Origin: Candidatus Saccharimonadota bacterium
GTDB taxonomy: Bacteria > Patescibacteriota > Saccharimonadia > Saccharimonadales > Saccharimonadaceae
Assembly (NCBI GenBank): GCA_049296095.1
Contig: JBAQRV010000001.1
Coordinates: 1-32,000 of the forward strand
Reading direction: 5' to 3'
Length of the DNA: 32,000 nucleotides
The notes under the pieces are model-generated. The model saw only the letters and a program-made list of their open reading frames with translations. It made no database searches and had not been told where the DNA came from. Made by a program: the position numbers and the translations under genes. Below are positions 1,904-32,000 of this stretch, in pieces (positions within the stretch are counted from its first letter, which is position 1; each line of letters opens with the position of its first letter).

Positions 1904-4717
1904 ATGTCAGAGGTTATTAGAGTTGTCGGTGCGCGGGAGCACAATCTTAAAAATATTACTGTTGAGATTCCTCGCGATAAGCTCGTTGTTATTACGGGTT
2001 TGAGTGGCTCTGGTAAATCGAGTCTAGCCTTTGATACGATTTACGCCGAAGGTCAGCGACGGTACGTTGAAAGCCTGTCGAGTTATGCTCGTCAGTTCTT
2101 AGGATTGATGGAAAAGCCCGACGTTGATCAGATTGACGGCCTCAGTCCGGCGATTAGTATCGACCAGAAATCAACCAGTCGCAACCCTCGGAGTACGGTT
2201 GCAACAGTGACCGAGATCTATGATTATCTCCGTCTGCTTTACGCACGTATTGGCATTCCGCACTGTCCTGTGTGTGGTAAACCAGTCACGCGTCGTACGC
2301 CCGAGGATATTATCGATGAGATTATGAAGCTCACTGAAGGCGCTCGCCTGATGATTTTAGCGCCAATCGTAAAGAGTAAAAAGGGTGAATTTGCCCATGT
2401 TCCAGAGCAGTATCGTCGTGTCGGTTTTGCTCGTGCTCGGGTGGACGGAGTTATTTATTCATTGGATGAATTCCCCGAGCTTGATAAGAAGTATAAGCAC
2501 GACATTGAAATCGTTGTCGACCGTGTGGCTTTGAGCCAAGACATCCGAGGTCGCATCGCTCAATCGGTTGAGCAATCGCTAGAGATTGCCGATGGCGTCG
2601 TGCAAATCTTGGATGTCGATTCTGAAACAAACTATGTATATAGTCAGCGCTACGCCTGTCTAGATCACCCGAATGAAGAGATCCCTGAACTTGAACCGCG
2701 CCTGTTTAGCTTTAACGCGCCACAGGGTGCATGTCCAGTCTGCACAGGACTCGGTAGCCGTCTAGAGGTTGATCCTGACCTAGTTTTTAATCCGAACCTG
2801 ACGATTGCCGAAGGTGCGATCCGACCATATAACCGTGTGAATAGCGATGCTTGGTATATGAAGCGATTAGCTGCAGTGGCGGATCGCCACGACTTTAGTC
2901 TGCGAGTTCCCGTAAAGGATCTATCAGACGAAGCCGTGCAGATGATCCTTTACGGAACTGGTGATGAGAAGTATCGTGTCTCACTGGGTGATGGGCGGGC
3001 ATACGACTCAACCTATGAAGGGGTGATTCCAAACCTCGAGCGTCGCTTTAAAGAAACCGACAGTGACTTTATGCGTAAAGACATCGAACGGTTCATGCGT
3101 GAACGCGAGTGCCATGCCTGTAAGGGTATGCGTCTCAAACCTGTCGTGCTAGCGGTGACGATTCACGGTTTGAATATTATGGATATTTGTACTTTGGGTG
3201 TTGATGCCGCTCTTGATCTGTTTGAAAATAAACTCAAACTCAACGATCAAGAGCAGTTCATCGCCGCCCAGATCATGAAAGAGATTAATTCTCGTCTTGG
3301 TTTCATGAATAATGTTGGCCTTAATTACCTCGAGTTATCACGAGCAGCAAATACCTTGTCTGGTGGGGAAGCGCAACGTATTCGTTTGGCAACTCAAATT
3401 GGCTCAGGCCTCCAAGGTGTGCTATACGTTCTGGACGAGCCTTCTATCGGTCTACACCAACGTGATAATGATCGTCTGATTTCGACTCTCAAACACCTCC
3501 GGGACCTAGGTAACACCGTACTGGTTGTCGAACATGACGAAGATACGATTCGTCAGGCTGATTATTTGCTTGATATTGGTCCTGGTGCTGGTGTCGCAGG
3601 TGGTCACGTTGTTGCCTCTGGAACGCCTGATGAAGTCGCCAAAAACCCAGATAGTATTACTGGCCGATTCCTGATTGGTACAGAGAAGATTGATGTACCA
3701 AAGAAGCGTCGTCCAATCGTCAAGGACCGTCGTTTGATTGTACGTGGCGCCCGTGAAAATAATCTTAAAAATATCGATGTTACGATTCCCCTTGGTGTTA
3801 TGACGGTAGTAAGTGGCGTTAGTGGTTCTGGCAAATCAACACTGGTTAATGACATTCTTGCTAAAGAGCTGTCGGCTCGTTTGCACCGATCACACGAAGT
3901 CCCTGGAGCGCACGAAAACCTCGAAGGCGTCGAGCAACTCGATAAGGTGATCGTGATCGATCAGTCGGCCATTGGGCGAACACCTCGTTCAAACCCAGCG
4001 ACCTATACCGGCGTCTTTACGCCGATTCGCGAATTGTTTGCTGGCACGACTGAAGCGAATATCCGTGGCTACAAAGCGGGACGATTCAGCTTTAACGTTA
4101 AGGGCGGGCGCTGCGAGAACTGTCAGGGTGACGGAGTGATTAAGATTGAAATGCACTTCTTGCCTGACGTCTATGTCACTTGTGATGTCTGTAAAGGTAA
4201 ACGATACAACCGCGAAGCGCTTGAAATCAAATACAAGGACGCCACTATCAGTGATGTTCTTGAAATGACCGTCGAGCAGGGTGCAAAATTCTTTGAGAAT
4301 ATTCCAGCCATTGCTCGCAAGCTCGACACTCTCGTAGACGTTGGTCTCGGTTATATCCGACTTGGTCAGCCAGCGACGACATTCTCTGGTGGTGAAGCGC
4401 AGCGCATAAAGCTCGCATCAGAACTATCTCGTCGTTCAACTGGAAAGACGTTATACATCCTTGACGAACCAACGACTGGTCTTCACAGTGCCGATGTCAA
4501 GCGACTTCTAGTTATCTTGCAAAAGCTGGTTCAGGGCGGCAATAGCATGGTGGTGATCGAGCATAATCTCGATGTCATTAAGACGGCCGATCACATTATT
4601 GATATGGGTCCAGAGGGTGGACTAGGTGGTGGCATGGTGGTCGCCTCGGGGACTCCAGAAGAGATTGTTAAAGTAAATGATTCGTTTACTGGTCGGTATC
4701 TAAAGACACTTCTGTAG
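1904..4717 (+). CDS. uvrA: Excinuclease ABC subunit A
   Basis: [18 protein letters not shown]...[28 protein letters not shown] aligns with the UvrA N-terminus. Two ABC modules (LSGGEAQR twice) and Cys-cluster Zn modules ([25 protein letters not shown]). The ORF-track start at 1799 is an upstream extension; ATG 1898 is an alternative. A TATAAT box lies at 1888-1893. Confidence 0.95.
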
Positions 4718-6482
4718 GTTCTTGCGACAAAATCAAGACGTTGTAGTCGGCGAGTTCGAGTGAGACTTTGTTATCCTCCCCTGTCGTGATACTTGAGGTT
4801 TTCGTTTCATTAAAATCAGGGCTGTAACCTTTCCAACTGCTATTAAAGCGAACATGCCAGGTTCCTGAAATTGGCAGTGAAAGTTCATAGTCTTTAAATC
4901 TTTGATCGCTAAAATTAGCAATGACGATAACGTCGTCGTGAGGGCCGCCGTTCAGCCAGCGATGGTAGGCAATGACGTTATTGTTCTGGTCTTGGTGAAA
5001 GATATTAATTGAAGGGCCGGTTAGACCTGCTGTATTTGCATAAGTGTCTAGACGTAGATTAATCAGGTGCTGGTGCGCGAGCACGATGCCAGCAAACTGT
5101 ACCGTTTTGTCCCAGTCGAGCATCTGCCAGTCATTAAAGGCACCTTCTTGCATGAACTCCTCACCTTGTAAAAGGAGGGGGATGCCGGGGGCGGTGAGTA
5201 GTATAGCATTTGCCACTAGCTCGTATTGACGGGCAAAGACACTTCCGGCATTGCCCGGTGTTGCGGCTTCATTGAGACGGACTGAGCTGTTCGCTGCCGT
5301 GTCGTGCGAGTCGCTAAAGATAACTTTCTGGAATGGTTGCCCATTATAGAAGTGTTGTAGCTCGCCTGCGAGCGTGTCGCCGCTTTGGTTTTGCTCCAGA
5401 CCAAGCGTACTTCTGAGCGTGTGGGGGAGTGTCAGGCCCCACTGCGCATCAAAGCCGGCACCACCATCACTGATAGGCTTGGTGATGTACTCATTGCCTG
5501 ATGTATCTTCGGCGTACATCATAACTGATGGGTTGATTTTATGGGCTAGTTTCGTCATGTCCTGGAGGAGTACCCAGGCGTCACCAATATCATGGGAAGG
5601 ATCACCACTGGGCCCCTCGGTGTTACGCATGTAGGTGGTGGAGTCTATACGGAGCCCATCGATGTGATATTCGGTCAGCCACATTGTAATATTGTCGAGG
5701 ATAAATTGACGCACCTCTGGACGGCCATAGTCAGGACGTCCACCCCAAGGCGTATCGCCACGCTCATCATTGTAAAAGTAAATTCCGCCACGACCATTTT
5801 CACTCCAACCGTCGAATTGCCATAGATCAGTGTCAGGGAAGAAATGGTTGTATACGAGATCGAGAACAACTGCCAGGCCACGTTCGTGACAGGCTTTGAC
5901 AAAGTCGAGCAATCCACGCCGCCCGCCGTAAGAGTTTTCAACTGAGAATATATGATTCGTAGCATACCCCCAGCCATTACTCATAGCAATACTGGTAACG
6001 GGCATGAGCTCGATAGTGTTAATTCCTAGACTCACGAGATAATCGAGCTTCTCAATTGCGCTCGCAAAGGTTCCTTGAGTGGAGGCGTCAGGACGATTAA
6101 AGGTTCCGATATGCATCTCATAGATAATTTGTTTCTCTTTTGGAATAGTAGGAGACTGTGTATCTTCCCAGTCAAAGTCGGCATCAACGATCACTGATGC
6201 ACCATTGTCAGAGACGGTTAGCTGGCGAGCGCGTGGATCGTTCTTTTCGAGGGTCCGTCCATCGGCTGTCTGAATGCGGTACTTATAGCCTTGTCCTGCG
6301 ATGATGTCTGGAACCAGAGCGGCCCAGTAGCCGTCATTTTCGCTCACAAGCGGAGTTTCATGCCAATCGAACGGCTCTCCAATAATCACACTAACTGAGG
6401 CGGCAAAAGGCGCCCAGACTCTAAATTCGACACCTTCTTTAGAAAGCGTTGCCCCTAGGTTCTTTTTTGCCTGATGCCCCAT
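4686..6482 (-). CDS. GH13 alpha-glucan-active enzyme with N-terminal CBM48-like module (GlgB/TreZ-like; subfamily not resolvable by eye)
   Basis: 598 aa. N-terminus GVEFRVWAP...YKYRI (CBM48-type). GH13 regions [27 protein letters not shown] and FSDSHD. Confidence 0.85.
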
Positions 6483-8046: not shown

Positions 8047-8074
8047 GACCCCGCTTGGTAGCGGGGTTCTTTTT
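8047..8074. terminator. Bidirectional rho-independent terminator shared by rplY (+) and the ABC exporter (-)
   Basis: Stem ccccgct (8049-8055) pairs with agcgggg (8060-8066), loop tggt. A T-run follows on the + strand (ttcttttt) and on the - strand (tcttttgt). Confidence 0.7.
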
Positions 8075-9839
8075 ATTCTTCGATGAAACCACCGGATTGG
8101 TGTGACCAGAGCTTGGCATAGACGCCTTTTTTCTTTAGGAGGTCTGTGTGTGTCCCATCTTCAATAATGACGCCCTTATCGAGAACGATGATACGGTCAA
8201 GTTTCGCGATTGTTGAGAGTCGATGAGCGATCACTATACTGGTGCGGCCTTTCATTAATTCAGTTAGTGCATCTTGAATAAGCTTCTCACTATTACTGTC
8301 GAGCGCTGAGGTTGCTTCGTCGAGAACAATGATCGGTGCGTCTTTTAAAATTGCCCTTGCGATAGCAACGCGCTGTCGCTGACCTCCGCTTAGTTTGACG
8401 CCTCGCTCTCCTACTAATGTATTCATTTTTTTAGGTAGCTTTTTGATGAACTCCATTGAGTGCGAAAGTGATGCTGCGTGTTCGATGTCTTTTAATTTAG
8501 CCCCCAATTTACCATATGAGATGTTGTCTCGTAATGATCGGTGGAATAGGAGAGGTTCCTGAGGCACATAGGCGATCGTACTATGGAGATCATCTTGGGT
8601 GACATCCTTAATAGATTGACCATCAATCAAGATACGACCCTTATCAATATCGGTGAATCGAAGGAGAATGCGCGTCAGGCTTGTTTTGCCAGAGCCAGAC
8701 TCGCCGACGACTCCAACTTTTTGTCCCGGTTTTATAGTCAGATTAAAATTCTGAAACAAAGCTTCTTTATTTTCATTGTGGGTAAACTGAACATTTTCAA
8801 ACCGAATTTCACCTGCTGCAACGTTCAACTTTTTTGGATGTGTCGGGTCGGTTAGTTCAATTGACTCATCCAGAGCTTGAATCATTGGGCTTGCATCACC
8901 AATGATGCGGATATAGTTACGTGTTGTGTTACCAACTGCCCATAGCTGAGAGACAACATTCAATGTGTAACTAATAACTAGGTAGATAACGCCAATTGAA
9001 GCGATATGATACTGAGTTGCGAAGACCGCAGCACTAAAAGCGAACATATTTAATATCACCATCAGGATTCCAAAAGAACCAGTGATAACAAGCACACTTT
9101 TCATTTCTTTAAGTGTTGCACCGCGCCACTCTTTTACCTTTTTGTTGTATTGCTGTAATTCATATGTCTCATTTGAGAAAGCTTTCACAACTGACAGGTT
9201 TGAAATTACATCAGCAAAATAACCAGTTGCGGCGCTCGACTTTTCAGAAACTCGCCGACTGACTGGCGCGATGCTACTTTGAGCCTTAATAATAACCGCT
9301 ACGATAATTGCCGAAAGAACAGCAAGAATAACGGCGTATTGCCAAAAGAGAAATGACAGAGCAATTGTTACCGATATCAAAGTCGTAAGGATTGGTACTG
9401 CCGTAAACATAAGAGTGTCCCAGAATCGCTCAATCGCACCATTCAGTTTTGAGTTGTCTGAAACGATGCCACCACTCATTTTATTGGCATGATAGTTAAG
9501 GCTTTTTGCGCTGAGTTTTCTTAGTGTTCGCATCATCGTATGAGCTTGCATCTTTGACTCTCCCAAGTACGCGAAAGCAATACTAAAACGAATGAGAATA
9601 ACATCACCGACAACTAAGACTATGGCGTAACCAATAAGGAGACTAATACTTGACTCGAGTGTCGCGCTTCCATCGGCGATGTGAGTAAGCAGTTGAGAAA
9701 CAAAGATAGGGGCAATCGTTGTCGTCAGGACAGCGAAGCCTATTTGGGTAATAAACATCAATGTCATCAGTACTGGTGAGACACGCCAAAGCCTCAGCAT
9801 AAAGTGGACAACGCGTGTTGATGATAACGGTTTTGACAT
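8073..9839 (-). CDS. ABC exporter, fused permease/ATPase (type I, MsbA/MdlB-like)
   Basis: 588 aa. N-terminal 6-TM region, then Walker A GESGSGKTS, signature LSGGQRQR and Walker B IIVLDEATS. An AGGAG SD lies upstream. Confidence 0.9.
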   Translation of the reverse strand: MSKPLSSTRVVHFMLRLWRVSPVLMTLMFITQIGFAVLTTTIAPIFVSQLLTHIADGSATLESSISLLIGYAIVLVVGDVILIRFSIAFAYLGESKMQAHTMMRTLRKLSAKSLNYHANKMSGGIVSDNSKLNGAIERFWDTLMFTAVPILTTLISVTIALSFLFWQYAVILAVLSAIIVAVIIKAQSSIAPVSRRVSEKSSAATGYFADVISNLSVVKAFSNETYELQQYNKKVKEWRGATLKEMKSVLVITGSFGILMVILNMFAFSAAVFATQYHIASIGVIYLVISYTLNVVSQLWAVGNTTRNYIRIIGDASPMIQALDESIELTDPTHPKKLNVAAGEIRFENVQFTHNENKEALFQNFNLTIKPGQKVGVVGESGSGKTSLTRILLRFTDIDKGRILIDGQSIKDVTQDDLHSTIAYVPQEPLLFHRSLRDNISYGKLGAKLKDIEHAASLSHSMEFIKKLPKKMNTLVGERGVKLSGGQRQRVAIARAILKDAPIIVLDEATSALDSNSEKLIQDALTELMKGRTSIVIAHRLSTIAKLDRIIVLDKGVIIEDGTHTDLLKKKGVYAKLWSHQSGGFIEE

Positions 9840-9970
9840 AGAACTCCTAATCTATAAGTCGTTGATAATAAAAGTCGCTATTGGTTTGGCCGTCCAAACG
9901 TTTGCGCAAGAGGATTCCTAAGAATCGTAGTGTTCATGATTATGTCACACCGAGCAAAGAATGTAAAATA

Positions 9971-10324
9971 CTATTTCTTTAGGCGGTGATCAATTGCATC
10001 TCTACTGAGTAAGATAATATTTCGCATGAGATCATCAGGTAGTGGATTGCTTGGCGTAAAACTGATCGTTCCCTTGCTGAGTTTGAATGGTTCGAGTTCT
10101 TTTTTAAACACCGAGATGACCTCTGCCCCCGGATAAATACTCAAGAACTTTTTGTTTGAGGCAAAAGCGATCATGTATTTGCCTTTGTATTTGTAGGTCG
10201 GAATACCGTAACTGAAACTATCTTCGGCTTCGGGTACCTCTTCATATACAAGCTGACGCAAGTGCGAGAAGAAGGCTTTTTCTGCCGGAACCAACTTCTC
10301 GATGTATTCCGTGACGATTGTCAT
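9971..10324 (-). CDS. DUF1801 (YdhG-like) domain protein
   Basis: 117 aa. Pattern ...SFSYGIPTYKYKGKYMIAFASNKKFLSIYPG... matches my recollection of DUF1801. An extended -10 (tgttatatt, 10339-10331 on the - strand) ends 6 nt before the ATG. Confidence 0.6.
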   Translation of the reverse strand: MTIVTEYIEKLVPAEKAFFSHLRQLVYEEVPEAEDSFSYGIPTYKYKGKYMIAFASNKKFLSIYPGAEVISVFKKELEPFKLSKGTISFTPSNPLPDDLMRNIILLSRDAIDHRLKK

Positions 10325-10349
10325 ACCCCTAATATAACACTGGTCAACG

Positions 10350-10358
10350 TGATATAAT
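10350..10358 (+). promoter_or_regulatory. Extended -10 box (TGaTATAAT) ending 7 nt upstream of the trhO GTG; leaderless-type
   Basis: tgatataat at 10350-10358, spacer agaagac, GTG at 10366, and no SD in between. Confidence 0.45.
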
Positions 10359-10365
10359 AGAAGAC

Positions 10366-11283
10366 GTGCAAAAAATCCTACTCTATTACCAATTTACGCC
10401 AATTAAAGATCCCGAAGCGGTTCGTTTGTGGCAAAAGACACTGACAGACAGTCTTGGGCTTCGTGGCCGGATTTTGATATCGGAACACGGTATCAATGGA
10501 ACGGTTGGTGGTGAGATGGATGATCTAAAGAAATATATTAAAGACACGAAAACCTATCCTGGATTTAAGAATATTGTTTTTAAATGGAGTGAGGGTGGTC
10601 GTGAAGACTTTCCTCGTATGAGTGTCAAGGCTCGTCGGGAATTAGTCGGCTTTAAAAACAGTGATGATGAGTTTGAGGTTGACGAGAATGGGGTGATTGG
10701 CGGCGGTGTTCATTTAAAGCCAAAACAGGTACATGAATTAGTTGAGAAGTATGGCGATGACGTCGTGTTCTTTGATGGCCGCAATGCACACGAGGCCGCG
10801 ATCGGAAAATTTAAAAATGCAGTCGTACCAAATACTCATACGTCACGTGATTTTATCGACGAACTCGAGAGTGACAAATATGATGACATTAAAGACAAGA
10901 AAGTCATCACTTATTGCACGGGCGGTATCCGCTGCGAAGTGATCAGTGCCATGATGAAGAAGCGGGGATTTAACGAGGTCTACCAAATTGATGGTGGCAT
11001 CGTGAAGTACGGTGAGGCTTATGGAGACGATGGGCTGTGGGAAGGAAGTTTACGGGTGTTTGATGACCGCATGACAGTGAACTTCTCTGACCACGCCGCG
11101 GTCATTGGGGAGTGTACCCATTGTCAGGGAAAAACGAGTAATTTCGAAAACTGCGCTTTTGCGAATTGTAATGATTTGGTTTTAATTTGTGATGACTGCA
11201 AACAAGATCCAGATCTTTTATTCCACACCAATGAGTGTCGCAAGAATGCAGAACAAAGTATGAAAGTGGGGGTAGCAGCATAG
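10366..11283 (+). CDS. trhO: Rhodanese-domain protein of the UPF0176/TrhO family (tRNA U34 hydroxylase)
   Basis: 305 aa. N-terminus [33 protein letters not shown], rhodanese active-site loop YCTGGIRCE, and a C-terminal Cys-rich tail. Confidence 0.8.
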
Positions 11284-13529
11284 GTAATTTCTTACACAAA
11301 ATCGGTGCCTATGCGTTTACGCATCGCTGGCAGGTGATCGCTGGCTGGCTGGTACTGCTGGCCCTTTTAGCTGTCACGGCTTCACAGTTTATAAAACCGA
11401 CCAGTACATCGATTAGTATTCCTGGAACCGAAGCGCAACAAGCGCTGGATCGATTTGGTGAGCTATTTCCTAGTGCCGGTAAAGGCTCTGGACGGATCGT
11501 TTTGGAAGCACCAAGCGGGAAAACACTTGATGATTACCAGACTATTATCAGCACTCTCGTAACGAAAGCGGATGAAGTTGAAGGTGTGAGCGAGGCTATC
11601 AGTCCATACCTGAATCCAAGGGCGATGTCGTCTGATCGGACGATTGCCTATGTGCAACTCCAGCTCGATAACGAGCTGAGTGGCATTAAAGATACAACCA
11701 CCGATAGCGTTCAGACGATCGTCGATGAAGCTCGACAGAGTGGCCTGACGGTTGAAATGGGCGGTGACATCATTGGCCGAAATCAAGGTGAGATTCTCGG
11801 GGTTGGTGAGGTAGCTGGGGTTGTCTTAGCGCTTGTCGTTTTGGTGATGACGTTAGGATCATTACTATCGGCTGGAATGCCGCTGGCGACTGCCCTCATT
11901 TCTATTGGTGTCAGTATGGCTGGATTGTTCTCGTTGAGCCAGGTTATCGATATCAGTTCAACCACACCAGTACTGGCGGTCATGTTAGGCTTGGCGGTTG
12001 GTATAGATTACTCGCTGTTTATTATCAGTAAGTACAAAAGTTATCTACTCGATGGCTATCAAAATAAGGAGGCAGCTGCCAAGGCAATCGGGACGGCTGG
12101 AAATGCTGTTATCTTTGCAGCGGCAACAGTCGTTATTGCGTTAAGTGCACTGACCGTAGCGCAAATCCCATTCATGACGACGATGGGGCTGGCAGGTGCG
12201 GCGACTGTCGCCTTGGCGGCGATTGTATCGGTGACGCTTGTTCCGGCTTTACTGGGTCTGGCTGGTGACCGTACTTTTCGCGGTAAAACGAAGCAGGCAA
12301 TCAAGCAAGCTCAGGCGAAGGGTCCTCACGAATCGCATCGGGTGAGTCATAAAACATTTTGGTACCGATGGGGTGCTGCGATCACTCGTCGGCCAATCAT
12401 TATTCTCGTGGGAGCAGTACTTTTGGTTGCTGCAATTGCGCTGCCAGTTCGTGATCTACAACTTGGCCTGCCAACTGACCAATACGCCGCTCAAGAAACG
12501 ACCCAACGTAAAGCCTATGATATTTTGACGAAGGGCTTTGGACCAGGGTTTAATGGTCCATTGTTGGTTGTCGTTGAAGGGCTCCCAAAGGTATCCGAGC
12601 AAGCAATCGCACAGCTCGGTCCACAGAATGCCACGATTCTGCAGCTCGCTATGGTCGCACAAAAGGTAGCGACGGTTGATGGTGTTGCTCAGGCGTTACC
12701 TGCGCTCGTGACTGACGACGGGACGAAGGGTGTTATTCAGATTGTCCCTACAACTGCGCCGTCAGATCCAGCGACACTTGATTTGATTCAGTACCTACGC
12801 GACACCTCTCATCAAGAATCCCTTGCGGGTCTAGACGGTGTGACCTTTAGTGTTACCGGGTCAACGGCACTACAAGCTGATATTAACGACAAACTGACCA
12901 GTGCATTGCCGCTCTATTTAGGAGTGGTTGTTGGACTGTCGTTGATTCTCTTGATGGTGGCTTTTCGTTCTATTTTGATTCCTATTAAAGCAACACTTGG
13001 GTTCTTGCTGTCGGTGCTCGCTATGTTCGGTGCCCTCGTCGCCGTGTTCCAATGGGGGTGGTTTGGCATCGCTGATGCGCCTGGTCCGATCATTAGTTTT
13101 ATTCCGATTATCGCTATTGGGGTATTGTTTGGCTTAGCTATGGACTATGAGTTCTTCTTGGTATCGAGCATGCATGAAGCCTATGGTAGGACGGGTAAGG
13201 CTAAGCAGGCGGTGATTGATGGCTTTGGGCTGGGAAGTAAGGTGGTGACGGCGGCTGGGATTATCATGGTGGCGGTATTCGCCGGCTTTATTCTGAACCA
13301 CGACGCGACGATTCAGGCGATTGGCTTTGGTTTGGCACTGGGTATTTTGGTTGACGCCTTTATTATCCGCATGACGATCGTTCCTGCAGTGATGACCCTG
13401 CTCGGTAAGAGCGCCTGGTGGCTTCCGAAGTGGCTCGATAAGATACTGCCGCATATTTCGATTGAAGGTGAAGCTGAAACAGCTCATAATGAAGCGCATG
13501 GTACTGGAAAAAAATCCAAAACTCGCTAA
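11235..13529 (+). CDS. MMPL/RND-superfamily membrane transporter
   Basis: 764 aa with two TM bundles. Motifs [13 protein letters not shown] and [18 protein letters not shown] are typical of MMPL proteins. The only canonical in-frame start is ATG 11235, giving a 49-nt overlap with trhO. Confidence 0.8.
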
Positions 13530-15066
13530 AAAGCTCGCGACCCTTCCGCGTAGTCCTGGGGTCTATTTCCATAAATCAAAAACAGGCGAGATTATTTATG
13601 TAGGCAAGGCAGCGGTCTTAAAGAATCGTGTCCGTCAGTATTTCCAGAGCACTCGCGATATGGACGTTAAAACACGCGCCTTGGTAGAAGAAATTGCCGA
13701 CACTGATTGGGTTGAGACGGAAAGTGAGCTTGATGCGCTATTCCTGGAGTCTGAGATGGTCAAGCGTTATATGCCCCGCTTTAATATCTTGCTCAGAGAT
13801 GATAAGTCACAGACCTTTATCCGAATTGATATGAAAAGTGAATGGCCAACAGTGAGCTTTACGCGCAACCCTGCCGATGACGGTGCCGAGTATTTTGGGC
13901 CGTATTATAACGGCTTTGCGATCAAAAAAGGTATGCGCTATTTGCGACGTGTTTTCCCTTATTATACGAAACCACCGACGGAAAATGGTCGACCAGACCT
14001 TGACGCACATATTGGCCTCAGCCCGAGAGATGGCACGAGTAGCCTTGACTACAAGGCGAGCTTGAAGAGACTGATTCGCTATTTGGAGGGCGGGCGAAGA
14101 ACGATTCTCAAAGAGTTTGAAAAAGAAATGCACATAGCTGCGAAACTACATGATTTTGAGAATGCGGCTATGCTCCGAAACAAAATAAGCAACATTAAAG
14201 CATTGCAGCAAAAGATTATGTTTGGCGACAGAGAGTTTCTCGATATAAGCAAAGATAAAGCGCTGAGTAAGTTGGTTGATCTGTTTGGTCTACAGAAAAT
14301 ACCGGCTCGAATTGAAGGGTATGACATCAGTCATATGGGTGGCACGAACGTAGTCGCAAGTATGGTGGTATTTACGAATGGTGTCAGCGACAGAGCAAAC
14401 TACCGCAAGTTCAAGACGCGCATCGAGCAAAATGATGATTACTATAATATGTACGAAACACTTTTGCGGCGAACCAGTGAAAAGAATCTCAAGGCATGGG
14501 GAGTGCCTGACCTTATTTTAATCGATGGTGGAAAGGGCCAGCTTGATGCGGCTCTGAAGGCACTCGAAGAGCGTCAGCTTACTATTCCGATGATAAGTAT
14601 AGCCAAGCGAGAAGAAGAAATAATTATTCACGGAACTCGATCGAATATCGCAACAGAGAAACTGATTAATTTAATCAAAGAGCCGCAAGACGATGTGATA
14701 GTTACAAGATCTGGTGAGTACTTGATCGTTAATCTCCATCCAGGGCAAGTCAATGCCTCGGGGCACTCTAAAAACCTGCGTGGAAGCTCGCAGTTCTCCT
14801 CATATTCTGATGTCACAAAGCTGTTTCAGCGAATCCGTGATGAATCTCATCGATTTGCGGTGAGTTACCACACCGTTTTAAAGCGTGCGAAACAGACCGA
14901 GGGTACACTTGAAGAAGTTCCGGGGATTGGTCCAGCGACAAAACGAAAGTTGATCAGGACATTTGGAAGCGTCCGTGCGTTAAAGTCGGCTGATCATGCG
15001 GCGATTGTGGCAGCGATCGGTGAGTCAAAGGCGGCCTTGATCCGTCGATATTTGCTTAGCGATTAA
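13498..15066 (+). CDS. uvrC: Excinuclease ABC subunit C
   Basis: GIY-YIG region PGVYFHKSKTGEIIYVGKA..NRVRQYF, UVR motif FENAAMLRNKISNIKAL, and C-terminal HhH region EVPGIGPATKRKLIRTFGS. Start is uncertain (TTG 13462, ATG 13489 or ATG 13498); all options overlap the MMPL 3' end. Confidence 0.9.
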   Translation: MVLEKNPKLAKKLATLPRSPGVYFHKSKTGEIIYVGKAAVLKNRVRQYFQSTRDMDVKTRALVEEIADTDWVETESELDALFLESEMVKRYMPRFNILLRDDKSQTFIRIDMKSEWPTVSFTRNPADDGAEYFGPYYNGFAIKKGMRYLRRVFPYYTKPPTENGRPDLDAHIGLSPRDGTSSLDYKASLKRLIRYLEGGRRTILKEFEKEMHIAAKLHDFENAAMLRNKISNIKALQQKIMFGDREFLDISKDKALSKLVDLFGLQKIPARIEGYDISHMGGTNVVASMVVFTNGVSDRANYRKFKTRIEQNDDYYNMYETLLRRTSEKNLKAWGVPDLILIDGGKGQLDAALKALEERQLTIPMISIAKREEEIIIHGTRSNIATEKLINLIKEPQDDVIVTRSGEYLIVNLHPGQVNASGHSKNLRGSSQFSSYSDVTKLFQRIRDESHRFAVSYHTVLKRAKQTEGTLEEVPGIGPATKRKLIRTFGSVRALKSADHAAIVAAIGESKAALIRRYLLSD

Positions 15067-15108
15067 CGCTTATGCTACACTACAGACATTAATATAACGG
15101 ATAAAAAC

Positions 15109-16647
15109 GTGCGCAATTATTCAAAATCTAACGCTGGTTTTACGCTTGTAGAAATTATTGTCGTTATCGTCATTATTGCCGTTCTTGCTGGGATTACGAT
15201 TGTTGGGTATGGCGCTTGGCGCAACTCTGTTCTGACCTCTGAGGTGAAAAGTACACTGGGGACCGCCGCCTCGAGTATGGAGAATTCACGCAACTTCGAG
15301 GAAACTTATCCATCGGCACTTCCCTCGACGATCGAAGGTGGCGATAATGTCATTCTTGATCTCGATGCGGCGACCGATGATTATTACTGTATTGACGGTG
15401 TTAGTGCTGAAAACGCAAGTATACAGTACTACATAAGCTCGGTGATTAAAGATAAGGGGGCTCAGCCAGGTACTTGTGCGACGAGCTCGTCAGTAGCACC
15501 TGTCGCACCGGCGGCGTTTGCGGTTGCTGCCTCTGCTTTGGATCAAATTACGCTTAGCTGGACTAATTCTGGTGGGGCTACGAGCTATATTATTCAATGC
15601 GCACGGGATGCTGCATTTATCGAAAATGTGAAAACGGCTACCGTTACCTCATCTCCAGGGGCAGTAACGAACCTAGATCCAAATGTGACCTATTTTTGTC
15701 GTGGAAAGGCAGCGAACTCAGCAGGTGACAGCGCATGGTCGGCGCCAGTTAGTACGACGACCGTGGTTGTATTTGGAACAATAGCGGCTGCAACAAATCT
15801 CCAGGAAACTTCAATTGGTGGAACGAGCACCACCGTTACATGGGATGCGATTATTTGTAATCTAGGGACACCATCTTATCGCATGGTGTGGGTAAGTGGT
15901 GATACGGGATCTACTGCTTGGGGATCATCATTGACGACAGTATTGTCACATACTCAGGCTGCGTCCTATACCTGGAAGGTTGAGACGAAATGTAGTTATG
16001 CGGGTATTGATTCTAGTGTCGCATCATCTACTAATAAATCATTTACCTCAATTGTCACGGCACCATCAGGCGCCTTCGGCACGATCGGTTGGAACGATCG
16101 TTGGGATTATAACGCCAACAGCAACACCTTTACCTGCGTATCTCCGGCAATTGAGGAATACACGATTGTAAAGACACTGAACGATGCCACGTCAGGCACA
16201 TGGACCTATGCATGGTCGACCTCAACAACGCAATCAGTGAGTTCGAATACTAATCAAGGCGCACGTATGACCGTATATATGCAGGTTCGCTGTCGAGTTG
16301 GTGTAACTAGCTCAACCGTACTGAGCTCATCCTCACGAACTGATAATGCATCAGTCGATGCGCCCGGTAACGTACCGAGTTGGTGTGTCGGTAGTTGCGG
16401 ATCGCCAAAAGGCAATAGTTGGGGTGCGGTTGGATGCCCAGCAGGAACATATGCCGTCTACTACGCACACACCTATGGTGACTATGGTAACAACATTTTT
16501 GGGCCATACGAAGCAGCAAACTTTTATCAATTTAACAGAGGTACGTACTATGATGGAAATCAAATGTTGCACGAGTATCTTGCGGCACGATGTACCTCAG
16601 CGTATCGATCAAGTGGCTGGGGCCCAGCGAATACGATGTACTGGTAA
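15109..16647 (+). CDS. Large type IV pilin-like protein (class III signal peptide) with fibronectin type III-like modules and a Cys-rich C-terminal domain
   Basis: MRNYSKSNAG|FTLVEIIVVIVIIAVLAGI is a prepilin leader with the G/F cleavage site and Glu+5. FN3-like segment ITLSWTNSGGATSYIIQCARD...YFCRGKAANSAGDSAWS, followed by a second similar module. GTG start. Confidence 0.8.
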   Translation: MRNYSKSNAGFTLVEIIVVIVIIAVLAGITIVGYGAWRNSVLTSEVKSTLGTAASSMENSRNFEETYPSALPSTIEGGDNVILDLDAATDDYYCIDGVSAENASIQYYISSVIKDKGAQPGTCATSSSVAPVAPAAFAVAASALDQITLSWTNSGGATSYIIQCARDAAFIENVKTATVTSSPGAVTNLDPNVTYFCRGKAANSAGDSAWSAPVSTTTVVVFGTIAAATNLQETSIGGTSTTVTWDAIICNLGTPSYRMVWVSGDTGSTAWGSSLTTVLSHTQAASYTWKVETKCSYAGIDSSVASSTNKSFTSIVTAPSGAFGTIGWNDRWDYNANSNTFTCVSPAIEEYTIVKTLNDATSGTWTYAWSTSTTQSVSSNTNQGARMTVYMQVRCRVGVTSSTVLSSSSRTDNASVDAPGNVPSWCVGSCGSPKGNSWGAVGCPAGTYAVYYAHTYGDYGNNIFGPYEAANFYQFNRGTYYDGNQMLHEYLAARCTSAYRSSGWGPANTMYW

Positions 16648-29265: not shown

Positions 29266-29349
29266 GATTTTCGTTAATACTCTGTTAAGAATTCATTATG
29301 AAGGTCGGTGAGTTCTGCTCAATTGCTTGAAATAACAGAGGCTATCCTC

Positions 29350-29355
29350 TATAAT
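29350..29355 (+). promoter_or_regulatory. -10 box (TATAAT) for tRNA-Gly
   Basis: tataat lies 12 nt upstream of the tRNA 5' end. Confidence 0.4.
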
Positions 29356-29367
29356 ACTCGAGAGTAT

Positions 29368-29443
29368 GCGGGTGTAGCTCAGCTGTTAGAGCGCGTCCTT
29401 GCCAAGGACGAGGCCCAGGGTTAGAGTCCCTGTACCCGCACCA
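29368..29443 (+). tRNA. tRNA-Gly (anticodon GCC), CCA encoded, noncanonical D-loop and T-loop
   Basis: Acceptor GCGGGTG/TACCCGC (G-U at 7:66), D-arm gctc-agctgtta-gagc, anticodon stem cgtcc/ggacg with loop ttGCCaa, T-arm caggg-ttagagt-ccctg. Total 76 nt. Confidence 0.85.
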
Positions 29444-29464
29444 CGAACGAAACCATCATTTTCT

Positions 29465-29494
29465 AAGAACCCATTCCAGGGTTCTTTTAGTTTT
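29465..29494 (+). terminator. tRNA-Gly terminator
   Basis: Stem aagaaccc/gggttctt, loop attcca, then ttagtttt. Confidence 0.6.
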
Positions 29495-29664
29495 GCAGAC
29501 ACCTTTGACCCCAATGATATTTATAGGACAGAGACATTCATCATTTGTGAGTTGGAGTATATCTCAAGCTTTACGTTCATCCATAAGGATGAACTTCCGT
29601 CATATTTTCGAGATATTATTACAACTGTCATGAACACGGTAAAAGCGGATTAAGCCCTTATTAG

Positions 29665-30378
29665 TTAGGCTATGTAATCGAGTAAGGCTTTCATGTTATT
29701 TAGGGAAGTATCAATAAAATCTTTCACTAACATATCTTTGAAATGTACCAGTTTTTTACTAGAAAGCTTTGGCTCTGAGGTTACTTCATTCCCGTTACTA
29801 GACCACCCGCTCGCTTGAACACCCGCACTCTCTGCGTGTTTGTAATCATTCCACAGTTCATTATATAGGTTTATGAAATAATCATAATCCAATGGCGTTG
29901 TTATACCTCTACCGTTTAACAGTTTTAGATAAGAGTTGAATGACATATTGTAGGTTGTTCCTTGACGTACGATAGCGGCTGATATGGTCGGGTGTTTTTG
30001 TGCTAAGAGCTTTACGAGTGGCTCGAGTATTCGGCAATAGTCATTTATAAAATGGCGTAAAGCAGGGCTTAGGTCATAGGTGGTGAAGCTACTATCTCCA
30101 GTCGAGCCTTTTGTACGAGCGTAAGGTCGGATACTTGCTTTCTCTGCGGCAGAACTAAAGTCATTCTCACCGTAGCCCTTTTTTACAAATTCTAATGCCA
30201 GAACGCGCTCTCGATGCAAGTGCCCCGTAACCTGCTTAGTTGAAGACTCGAAGTCTTCCCGACGAAAGAACATGCCATTTAGATTGCCTGCGTTGTGCTT
30301 TCCAGCACCGTTAAGCTTACCTGTAATGTAATTGAGTGTTGTGTATCTTGTTGTCACTGAGATGGTCTCGATTCTCAT
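29665..30378 (-). CDS. Hypothetical protein A of the tRNA-Gly-adjacent island (237 aa)
   Basis: Long ORF in AT-rich DNA. TATAAT (30390-30385 on the - strand) ends 6 nt before the ATG. No family recognised. Confidence 0.65.
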   Translation of the reverse strand: MRIETISVTTRYTTLNYITGKLNGAGKHNAGNLNGMFFRREDFESSTKQVTGHLHRERVLALEFVKKGYGENDFSSAAEKASIRPYARTKGSTGDSSFTTYDLSPALRHFINDYCRILEPLVKLLAQKHPTISAAIVRQGTTYNMSFNSYLKLLNGRGITTPLDYDYFINLYNELWNDYKHAESAGVQASGWSSNGNEVTSEPKLSSKKLVHFKDMLVKDFIDTSLNNMKALLDYIA

Positions 30379-30460
30379 TGGCTAATTATACAACTTGCTT
30401 GACCGAAGAAGTAACTTGGTTCTGTAGTGTGTGTATTGAGATTACATTTGATTAAGACAC

Positions 30461-30490
30461 TTAGCAACTTTTTCTTTAGTAGAATATAAT
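30461..30490 (+). promoter_or_regulatory. Promoter of island gene B (TTAGCA - 18 nt - TATAAT), leaderless-type
   Basis: ttagca at 30461-30466 and tataat at 30485-30490. ATG 30497 follows after 6 nt with no SD. Confidence 0.4.
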
Positions 30491-30496
30491 TAAATC

Positions 30497-31315
30497 ATGA
30501 CCCTAATATCACTTGCATATAATAGATTCGTTGTTGGTGTATCCACTGATACTCAACTAACTTACATTGATAGCGGAACTTCAGCTGGAGATGCGATAAA
30601 AAGCCTTTCTTTTCGCTGTGCAAATGGTAAGTTCCTCGCTGCATATACTGGTAATAACATTTTCCTCGAAGATGGGGTACATGTTGTCGATTGGGTGACT
30701 AACCTTCTAAGTAACGCTGACATTGGTAGTAAGAAAGTTGATGAAGTTATACAAGAAATAGTTCAAGGCTTGAACGAAAAACATTATATTAGCCAGCCAG
30801 CAGCGTTAATAATTCTTATCGCTGGTTGGCGAGAAAATAATAATATTGTCTATCGGATTACGAACATCGGGGAGGATGGAGACCTATCTCCTAAGCAAAC
30901 TTTTGAAGTATTTATGAGTGAAGACGAGAGTGGTGTTATTGTCGATGGCTCTATCAAGATAGGTATGGACGATAGTTTTGACACTAAGGTTGAGGCCGTA
31001 AGGGAATTGCTAAAATCAACAACACCAGAGAATTTCAGAGACATTATCGGTCCTGAGCTTTACAGTCTTAATCAGATTGCCCACAATCACCCAACCCAAG
31101 GTAAGTACATCGGTGAAAATACAATGTTCACGTTTATTCAGCCTGTGGGCGATGGGATGGACGCTTGGAGGTATCCTGAAGGACAAACAAAGTATATGCT
31201 ACCTAATTTCAGCAATGCAGCGATGTCAGTCAAGGGAATTGTCGTTCACAATGACCCCGTAGAGGGTGGAACAATACAGATGGACATCAAGGGCTGGCCT
31301 CCCCGTAAGGGTTAA
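30497..31315 (+). CDS. Island protein B: divergent HslV/proteasome-beta-like (Ntn hydrolase fold) protein with a C-terminal extension; family assignment tentative
   Basis: 272 aa. The N-terminus M|TLISLAYNRFVVGVSTDTQLT lines up with E. coli HslV [21 protein letters not shown] at Thr1, Asp17, Gln19 and Thr21. Lys34 lies next to the Lys33 position. KFLAAYTGN compares with KVIAGFAGG, followed by LIILIAGW..IVYRI and VIVDGSIKIG. Confidence 0.7.
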   Translation: MTLISLAYNRFVVGVSTDTQLTYIDSGTSAGDAIKSLSFRCANGKFLAAYTGNNIFLEDGVHVVDWVTNLLSNADIGSKKVDEVIQEIVQGLNEKHYISQPAALIILIAGWRENNNIVYRITNIGEDGDLSPKQTFEVFMSEDESGVIVDGSIKIGMDDSFDTKVEAVRELLKSTTPENFRDIIGPELYSLNQIAHNHPTQGKYIGENTMFTFIQPVGDGMDAWRYPEGQTKYMLPNFSNAAMSVKGIVVHNDPVEGGTIQMDIKGWPPRKG

Positions 31316-31317
31316 TA

Positions 31318-31968
31318 ATGGATTACTCATGGAAGCCTGACGGCCATAAGATTAAAGTTCAGGGTGTACCATATCAATGGCCATTAGCACTTAGAAACTT
31401 CGTACTACCTGTTAGACATCAGGATGGTTGGATTGAAAACAGTAAAAACGTGACCAATACTGGTTTGAGTGCGAGAGAATGGTTTGGACTGGTGGTACAC
31501 GCCGTAGCAATGTCAGATGTTAGTGGCGACGAGATTCTTGTGGCAACTGAAGACACGGGTGGCGATGGTGCTGTCGTTAGTGTCGAGAATGGTGAAAATA
31601 TGGCAGTGCTTGTTGAGCAAACCCTTGCGACCCACAAAGAAGATGGTGACTTACTTGATGTCATTAGGCGGAGGGTTAGAGCGAAGTCTTCTATGGGTGA
31701 AAATTATGCAGAGAATAAACATTTAGTTATTCTTTGTAATAACAACGGTGATTTAATCGAGAAAAAGTTAGCAAAGATTGTATCTATAGGGATGTTTGAT
31801 ATCGTGAATATCATCGGATTCCAAGATAATGAACAGGGAAGACACTTTTTGAGTTATATTTTTGATAAGGACGTGCCCAATAAAGCAATTCACAGGATGG
31901 TTATTGATGACAGTAAGCTATGGCAAGCTGCGATTGATATATTTGAAGAAGAACAGAAAGTAAAATAG
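31318..31968 (+). CDS. Island protein C (216 aa), tightly linked to B; function unknown
   Basis: The ATG lies 2 nt after the B stop, with AAGGG 6 nt upstream. No confident motif. Confidence 0.7.
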   Translation: MDYSWKPDGHKIKVQGVPYQWPLALRNFVLPVRHQDGWIENSKNVTNTGLSAREWFGLVVHAVAMSDVSGDEILVATEDTGGDGAVVSVENGENMAVLVEQTLATHKEDGDLLDVIRRRVRAKSSMGENYAENKHLVILCNNNGDLIEKKLAKIVSIGMFDIVNIIGFQDNEQGRHFLSYIFDKDVPNKAIHRMVIDDSKLWQAAIDIFEEEQKVK

Positions 31969-32000
31969 CTTTAAATTACACCGAGTCAATGTACGTCAAT

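Follow-up and report, generated by a model that had tools for sequence, protein, structure and literature searches.

What do the three genes that follow tRNA-Gly in this Saccharimonadota contig encode, and do they form one defense system? The window, by which we mean the whole 32,000-nucleotide stretch of DNA that was analyzed, ends in three open reading frames, here called A, B and C, which lie in AT-richer DNA just beyond the tRNA-Gly gene (Table 1). A preliminary description of the stretch, made from its letters alone, had treated them as a single island of the tRNA-flanked kind in which defense or conflict systems are classically found. In Saccharibacteria, which are episymbionts of ultra-small size with reduced genomes, most accessory genes lack annotation. 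The explanation that we favor centers on B and, taken as a whole, has in our judgment a somewhat better than even chance of being correct: B would be a propeptide-less Thr1 hydrolase of the proteasome-beta/HslV type, acting as an effector, and positions 29444-32000 would mark where an AT-richer accessory region, variable in content and at least 12.5 kb long, begins on its left side.

B begins with Met-Thr-Leu-Ile, and no in-frame start codon lies upstream of this one. A profile search through 1.84 billion representative sequences retrieved 55 relatives of B, and most of the alignments ran from residue 1 of both proteins. In an alignment of 48 family members, whose identity to the window protein goes down to 17%, M1, K35, G52, N123 and G151 were invariant; conservation was at least 90% at T2 (with Ser in a single member), L3, I4 and D18. 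In the numbering of the mature protein, the set becomes Thr1, Asp17 and Lys34, plus a glycine right after the fourth core strand; in the structural model, G52 directly follows a strand predicted at residues 44-50. The catalytic signature that Fuchs et al. (2021; PMC8665760) give for proteasomes and HslV is Thr1/Ser1-Asp17-Lys33 plus Gly47, and the conserved residues of B match it. The same authors state that families other than proteasome-beta/HslV lack propeptides.

The predicted structure of B pointed in the same direction. The AlphaFold2 model had a predicted template-modeling score (pTM) of 0.62 and a mean predicted local distance difference test score (pLDDT) of 57, with core blocks scoring 60-86, and in our own judgment its strands and helices follow one another much as in the proteasome fold, an alpha-beta-beta-alpha sandwich. 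When the model was compared with the PDB through Foldseek, all of the matches at E ≤ 1e-3 (32 of 32) were 20S proteasome subunits (nearly all of them beta), Anbu or HslV; the template-modeling (TM) scores on the target were about 0.45-0.60, and the matches included the HslV entries 4ho7 and 3ty6 and the Anbu entry 5nyg. An hhalign comparison with Escherichia coli HslV (the query being verified against PDB 5ji3_A) aligned residues 1-53 of B at E = 1.3e-3 and placed T2, D18 and K35 onto Thr1, Asp17 and Lys33, respectively.

Four results tell against this assignment of B. The hhalign probability for the pair with HslV was just 18%, with about 50 residues covered. The mean pLDDT of 57 marks the model as one of low confidence, and such models can yield meaningless Foldseek matches. 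The Pfam hidden Markov model for Proteasome (PF00227) matched one of the 48 members, at E = 0.029, meaning that the family is not recognized. Finally, when B was used in a profile search of the PDB, the best match was a proteasome beta subunit at E = 0.73. Since PF00227 fails on the B family, B is a relative at the level of fold and motifs, with a family of its own, and not a member of the Pfam family.

Like HslV (also called ClpQ), B starts with Met-Thr without a propeptide and, in its model, has the same order of strands and helices. Unlike HslV, it is about 95 residues longer, carries a conserved C-terminal extension and shows no significant sequence similarity beyond the first ~50 residues; furthermore, no hslU-like AAA+ partner was found next to B at the loci examined, and B resides in variable or defense islands, very rarely and patchily, rather than in a heat-shock operon. 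With Anbu, BPH, connectase and the 22 families of Fuchs et al., B shares a conserved beta-sheet core decorated by family-specific extensions, as well as a narrow and patchy distribution. We take the B family to be very rare and probably new, and likened it to those 22 families through their published description; the text of PMC8665760, which we searched, contains no mention of Saccharibacteria, Patescibacteria or reverse transcriptase.

The C-terminal extension is specific to the B family and spans about 50 amino acids. It is modular: among distant members, collected in a wider alignment (A2), three have a SEC-C zinc-binding motif at the C-terminus (best E = 8.9e-9), and a He_PIG immunoglobulin-like domain occurs in one. 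Alignment A2 was too divergent for use as a search seed. Ten of the distant relatives were looked up; all came from metagenomes only, with no accession listed.

If B works as its conserved residues suggest, its leaderless mRNA would start at the ATG, and methionine aminopeptidase would remove Met1, exposing the threonine as an N-terminal nucleophile (Ntn). Asp18 and Lys35 would complete a proteasome-type triad, and Gly52 would supply the oxyanion hole. The enzyme would be competent without propeptide processing, as in E. coli HslV, and it might act as the proteolytic effector of a conflict system, for example in anti-phage defense or abortive infection.

This last step concerns the company that B keeps, and the homologues of B are cargo of defense-type islands. 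At locus L007 (GCA_040384245.1, JAWVHA010000010.1), the B homologue stands directly behind a retron-type reverse transcriptase (RT) gene, which overlaps the start of B by 4 nt, and is followed by a gene for a MauJ-domain protein. For the RT (9120-10004), the best PADLOC model was RT_VI, matched over the full length at 1e-72. Upstream of it lie about 870 nt of non-coding DNA, and a perfect 12-nt inverted repeat of the a1/a2 type (8842-8853 and 9083-9094, 229 nt apart) ends just ahead of the RT. The fold of the upstream RNA is far stabler than that of shuffled controls (z = -6.8), and a comparison of the retron-like RNA with Rfam gave no match. We regard positions 8245-11694 of this locus as a candidate novel retron region.

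As in retrons, an RT, a structured upstream RNA and a1/a2-like repeats thus occur together at L007, and the gene in what is predicted from sequence to be the effector position is the B homologue. Unlike a retron, the window itself has no RT; none was found in the window or in its extended version (L001, described below), and the retron features were met at the homologous locus L007 only. In the survey of Mestre et al. (2020; PMC7736814), the effectors of type VI retrons are small Cro/C1 helix-turn-helix (HTH) proteins, whereas types VIII and XI involve esterase or trypsin-type proteases, type XI RTs being fused to trypsin-like proteases. In the literature searched, we found no report linking retrons with proteasome-like proteins.

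Other B homologues have comparable neighbors. At L018, B lies downstream of a second retron-type RT, with genes for an RmrA-like HTH/M78 protein and for a PIN/DUF4411 protein in between. At L014, a MauJ-domain protein again comes after B, without an RT. At L006 (JGI 3300066006, Ga0604930_0000012), the B-C pair is directly followed by a gene (11550-14336, GC content 0.37) for a 928-aa KAP-family P-loop NTPase, related at ~1e-21 to the QatA/PifA/PDC-S20 models of PADLOC and absent from the window genome. B occurs without A and C at L009, near genes for an Nhi/PDC-S41-like helicase and restriction endonuclease (REase)-like proteins, at L017, near a HEPN_Toprim_N gene and a PD-T7-5-like gene, and at L016.

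A further link to mobile DNA came from comparing L007 with L011, which belong to other Saccharimonadales. In both, a large serine recombinase gene (13713-15342 and 4142-5875, respectively; ~70% nucleotide identity) abuts or overlaps tRNA-Lys(UUU), and B and C are alternative cargo of these homologous elements, inserted at the same tRNA-Lys/DUF192/ATP-grasp site: RT-B-MauJ at L007, EamA-197 aa-C at L011.

Given that homologues of B sit in defense islands and that one of them is translationally coupled to a retron-type RT, we infer that B may be a proteolytic effector in a conflict or defense setting, a role whose chances we put at slightly less than even. Some observations speak against a defense role. 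The link is one of guilt by association, drawn from about eight non-redundant contexts, and several contexts, such as L016 and L013, are unremarkable. In addition, a search of PADLOC-DB 2.0 with A, B and C produced no match at E ≤ 1, none of the three was present in the IMG/VR viral contigs searched, and B was absent from the phage and plasmid records searched.

Whether A, B and C belong together was assessed by a tblastn comparison of the three with each of the loci retrieved: they co-occur in the window genome only. Each of them represents a small family, confined to Saccharimonadia-type assemblies, with 17 clusters for B (among 5.8 billion proteins), 25 for C and 33 for A. The B family was found at one locus among 185,579 GTDB species genomes, and further scans of genomes and metagenomes for contexts gave one locus each. 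None of the three had a match above threshold in Pfam, NCBIfam, PHROGs or PADLOC, the last being a check that the preliminary description had proposed; single-sequence and profile searches of the PDB found nothing significant, and a comparison of every family member with Pfam gave scattered sub-threshold matches only. The B-C pair recurs at L006, with 80% (B) and 79% (C) identity to the window proteins, and it appears to recur on a 5.2-kb contig with both P0003 and P0020. C is found without B at L011 and L012, near large serine recombinases. As for A, it stands alone at L013, directly after a tRNA-Thr and among housekeeping genes; at L019 it is part of a serine-recombinase island, and at L020/L021 it directly follows a restriction-modification (R-M) pair of the EcoO109I type. 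Because A, B and C meet in the window genome alone and each occurs elsewhere without the others, these orphan genes have been inherited independently of one another and do not make up a three-gene system.

The composition of the region had been part of the case for an island, and here the preliminary description was largely right. It had placed a change immediately after the tRNA-Gly terminator, and the computed GC content is indeed 0.404 for 29444-32000 versus 0.475 for 1-29443; sliding windows of 2557 nt over the upstream part averaged 0.474 (standard deviation 0.017, minimum 0.420), and none reached 0.404. The GC content at third codon positions (GC3) is 0.41 for A and 0.37 for both B and C, versus about 0.44-0.56 for most upstream genes. 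A milder low-GC stretch is present at 8073-11283, with genes at 0.42-0.44 GC, and it contains the lowest upstream 2.5-kb window (0.420 at 8401).

The same description had seen three frames without a nameable family, a divergent arrangement of A and B-C, and a TATAAT box placed 6 nt before each ATG, all of which we could confirm. The -10 element of A (30385-30390, minus strand) ends 6 nt ahead of the ATG (gttgTATAATtagccaATG). The promoter of B reads TTAGCA-18-TATAAT (30461-30490), with the -35 element at 30461-30466 and the -10 element at 30485-30490, also 6 nt from the ATG. A TANNNT motif occurs 6-7 nt ahead of the start in several other genes of the window, and the B orthologue at L006 has TACAAT 6 nt ahead of its ATG. 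The spacing between TATAAT and ATG implies that A and B have the promoter geometry of leaderless mRNAs. As C begins 2 nt past the stop codon of B, the two genes are probably co-transcribed. A hairpin reported in the gap between tRNA-Gly and A does have the 8-bp stem described for it; its position had been given as 29585-29604 and the gap as 220 bp, which we correct to 29575-29594 and 221 bp. An Rfam search of the region found the tRNA as its sole match.

Table 1. Features around tRNA-Gly and genes A, B and C (positions refer to the window)
Feature	Position	Strand	Remarks
Promoter-like site of tRNA-Gly	29327-29355		TTGAAA-17-TATAAT; promoter scan
tRNA-Gly(GCC)	29368-29443	+	ARAGORN; Rfam RF00005, 66 bits; left landmark of the composition break
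Intrinsic-terminator-like hairpin	29465-29486 (stem-loop), with T-run to 29496	+	AAGAACCC-6 nt-GGGTTCTT; 3' of tRNA-Gly
AT-richer segment	29444-32000		GC 0.404; runs on for at least 12.5 kb past the window edge
Perfect 8-bp hairpin	29575-29594		GTTCATCC-ATAA-GGATGAAC; in the gap between tRNA-Gly and A; without a T-run after it
Gene A	29665-30378	-	237 aa; orphan family, 33 clusters
Divergent promoter region of A and B	30379-30496		118 bp
Gene B	30497-31315	+	272 aa; predicted proteasome-beta/HslV-like Ntn hydrolase, propeptide-less
Gene C	31318-31968	+	216 aa; begins 2 nt past the B stop codon

To follow the region rightwards we used L001, i.e., the same contig with 10 kb on either side, from a metagenome-assembled genome of Candidatus Microsaccharimonas sp. 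(GCA_049286885.1, JBAQET010000004.1). As had been supposed, the low GC content continues beyond the window edge; it persists over 12.5 kb or more and averages 0.418 there. After C comes a mosaic made up of a family-less gene of 196 aa, Ldh_2, small unknown genes, DUF1428, a heliorhodopsin gene, a CsoR-like repressor, a rhodanese and a type I R-M operon. The latter, hsdM-hsdS-AbiU2-hsdR, lies 6-10 kb further on (L001 16811-20651; from about 38128 in window coordinates), has a GC content of 0.35-0.42, and in it an inserted AbiU2-type HEPN gene separates hsdS from hsdR. The heliorhodopsin gene (PF18761; L001 15311-16075), which adjoins the CsoR-like and rhodanese genes, has a GC3 of 0.61 within this low-GC region.

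The extension also bears on two features that count against an integrated island. Neither the window nor the following 12.5 kb has an integrase or recombinase among its called genes, and L001 was searched in vain for another copy of the tRNA-Gly 3' end (GGGTTAGAGTCCCTGTACCCGCACCA), with a tolerance of 3 mismatches in 25 nt or of 10 in 27 nt. The preliminary description had noted the lack of both an integrase and an attachment (att) repeat within the window, and the same turned out to be true of the added DNA: the integrase and the tRNA repeat that it had proposed to look for to the right were not found in these 12.5 kb.

The history of the site was examined by comparing L001 with L006, the sole relative compared at tRNA-Gly. 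The two neighborhoods have in common tRNA-Phe, tRNA-Gly and B-C only. In L006, too, tRNA-Gly directly precedes B-C; the genes between the tRNAs, gene A (which L006 lacks) and everything after C differ, and tblastx detected no common genes after C or between the two tRNAs. The nucleotide identity of B-C between the two loci is ~76%, versus 79% for BipA, 75% for MgsA and 67.5% for trehalase. Having diverged as much as the flanking core genes, B-C are an old resident beside tRNA-Gly and not a recent insertion. The pair is AT-richer than its surroundings in both genomes (in L006, 0.397 vs 0.444), and its GC3 is low in both.

In L006, the 3' end of tRNA-Gly is also directly repeated, without a mismatch, over 27 nt (GGGTTAGAGTCCCTGTACCCGCACCAA; within 9745-9963), the repeat being located 116 nt after tRNA-Gly and ~40 nt ahead of B. 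We interpret it as an att-like scar of site-specific integration, meaning that tRNA-Gly has served as an integration site. In the window genome, gene A occupies the equivalent position, and neither a degenerate att repeat nor any L006-like sequence could be found there between tRNA-Gly and B. An idea of tRNA-targeted integration is thus in keeping with the relative, and the window genome itself shows no bounding repeat or integrase. Separately, an intergenic stretch of 56 nt shows 87.5% identity between L001 (10757-10812) and L006 (14997-15052), all the surrounding genes being different. It comes after C in L001 and after the KAP NTPase and a 171-aa gene in L006, which points to sequence gained or lost between C and this stretch.

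These data can be set against the proposal that A, B and C are one defense cassette, horizontally acquired at tRNA-Gly and bounded by an integrase and an att repeat somewhere beyond the window. A cassette of this kind would account for the low GC that starts exactly past the tRNA terminator, for the divergence of A from B-C out of a single 118-bp region, and for the repeat in L006 together with the defense genes downstream. It is, however, largely refuted by the distribution of the three genes, which come together in the window genome alone, are each found alone elsewhere and do not include A at L006; the 12.5 kb downstream yielded no integrase or tRNA repeat, B-C show core-like divergence between two species, and PADLOC was negative. 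We therefore consider the cassette highly improbable, and the grouping of the three genes into one island is not supported. What does survive of the defense setting originally proposed is an accessory variable region, with type I R-M and AbiU2 genes 6-10 kb on and with homologues of its genes beside defense genes elsewhere. In the one relative compared, A and the genes after C differ, and B-C is kept in place.

The age of B-C fits another explanation, namely, a vertically inherited housekeeping module in which an HslV-like quality-control protease works with C as a cofactor, the low GC being specific to these genes. Core-like divergence and an identical site in two species are also what a lineage-specific housekeeping function would give, a point that counts against defense; the host-like leaderless promoter geometry, shared with other genes of the window, and the lack of mobility genes nearby agree with it as well. 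Such a module is nonetheless hard to reconcile with the extremely patchy distribution of B, with other members of the family being serine-recombinase cargo or neighbors of retron RTs and other defense genes, and with the fact that all around B-C differs between the two species and GC3 is low in both genomes. On balance we find the housekeeping explanation unlikely, and we retain the one in which B is a predicted Thr1 hydrolase at the edge of an accessory region.

That region has much in common with tRNA-associated genomic or defense islands: a tRNA 3' end, lower GC, variable content and R-M/Abi genes. It differs from them in lacking an integrase or repeat within 12.5 kb, and in that B-C are kept in place and are as old as the flanking core genes. 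A variable region next to a tRNA is, in itself, ordinary.

The model of C was of much better quality than that of B (pLDDT 89, pTM 0.88) and shows a confident alpha/beta fold, for which Foldseek searches of the PDB and BFVD returned no convincing structural neighbor (best E = 3e-3, TM < 0.37). The invariant residues of the family include E40, R53-E54-W55, H61, D67, D83-G84, E100, T102, K123-S124, Y130, N133, H135 and C140-N141. In the model, E54 falls in helix 52-69, D83 precedes strand 85-90, E100-Q-T is part of strand 93-105, and K123 belongs to helix 112-124. The arrangement may be read as PD-(D/E)xK-like on an alpha-beta-beta-beta-alpha core, with the canonical Lys absent from the motif; the weak Foldseek matches included BsmI, Cdn1, SwaI and PD-(D/E)XK phage proteins (E from 7e-3 to 0.2, TM < 0.3).

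A different hint came from SMI1_KNR4 (SUKH-1, PF09346), which matched three of 23 members of the C family at E from 0.0035 to 0.12, aligning residues ~46-100 of C with positions 59-116 of the profile. With C as a SUKH-like immunity protein, B could be a toxic Ntn hydrolase, the two genes would form a toxin-immunity pair, and solitary copies of C would be orphan immunity genes. The 2-nt distance between B and C, the sub-threshold matches falling over one region in all three members, and the finding of C without B in variable islands are what one would expect. Nevertheless, the best SUKH-1 score was 18.4 bits, below the Pfam cutoff of 25.4, and the three members are themselves close relatives; no SUKH structure was among the top 50 Foldseek matches listed for the confident C model. 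Moreover, most B homologues have no adjoining C, so B is tolerated without it, and B bears no secretion signal or toxin-delivery domain. The toxin-immunity pair is accordingly quite improbable in our estimate. Within the reading of B as a putative effector, C, probably co-transcribed with it in the Microsaccharimonas lineage only, would be its partner, possibly a regulator, an immunity-like protein or a nuclease.

Gene A stands apart as an accessory gene of its own, and in other genomes it sometimes comes after R-M genes. Its invariant residues include R39, D42, S46, R108-H109, N112-D113, C115-R116, E119, K128, Y172, W176-N177 and Y179-K180-H181, and two motifs, LRHxxNDxCRxLEP and WNDYKH, can be written from the alignment. 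Profile and family-library searches detected no relative of A outside its own family. At L020 (195-2514) and L021 (181-2476), an A homologue with 65% identity is located 43 nt after the pair formed by an N6/N4 methyltransferase and RE_EcoO109I, and this exact protein is present on at least 24 contigs (52 index blocks).

A number of conceivable relationships among the neighboring proteins were tried and rejected. On comparison, neither the 196-aa gene after C in L001 nor the 197-aa gene ahead of the C homologue at L011 is a paralogue of C. No homology links C with the MauJ-domain protein encoded after B at L007 and L014 (hhalign probability 0.1%), nor does C show any relationship to the REase-like protein of L009. 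A, for its part, proved to be related neither to the MauJ-like protein nor to the AbiU2 HEPN protein.

A bolder version of our interpretation would have B found an undescribed branch of the proteasome/HslV proteins that serves as an anti-phage effector in Saccharibacteria, being wired in some genomes to a retron (RT, msr-msd-like RNA, B and a MauJ/HEPN-like protein) and paired here with the novel-fold protein C. We regard this as rather unlikely; if true, it would provide the first proteasome-like effector of a retron or of abortive infection, and a defense native to an ultra-small, episymbiotic lineage of the candidate phyla radiation (CPR). As it stands, the family of B is linked to defense islands and to a retron, a pairing for which we found no earlier report in the literature searched, and an orphan gene gains a testable biochemical identity, that of a predicted Thr1 proteasome-type hydrolase without a propeptide. 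Confirmation would mean a new class of effectors in retron and abortive-infection immunity, a new branch of the proteasome family and a compact scaffold for Thr proteases.

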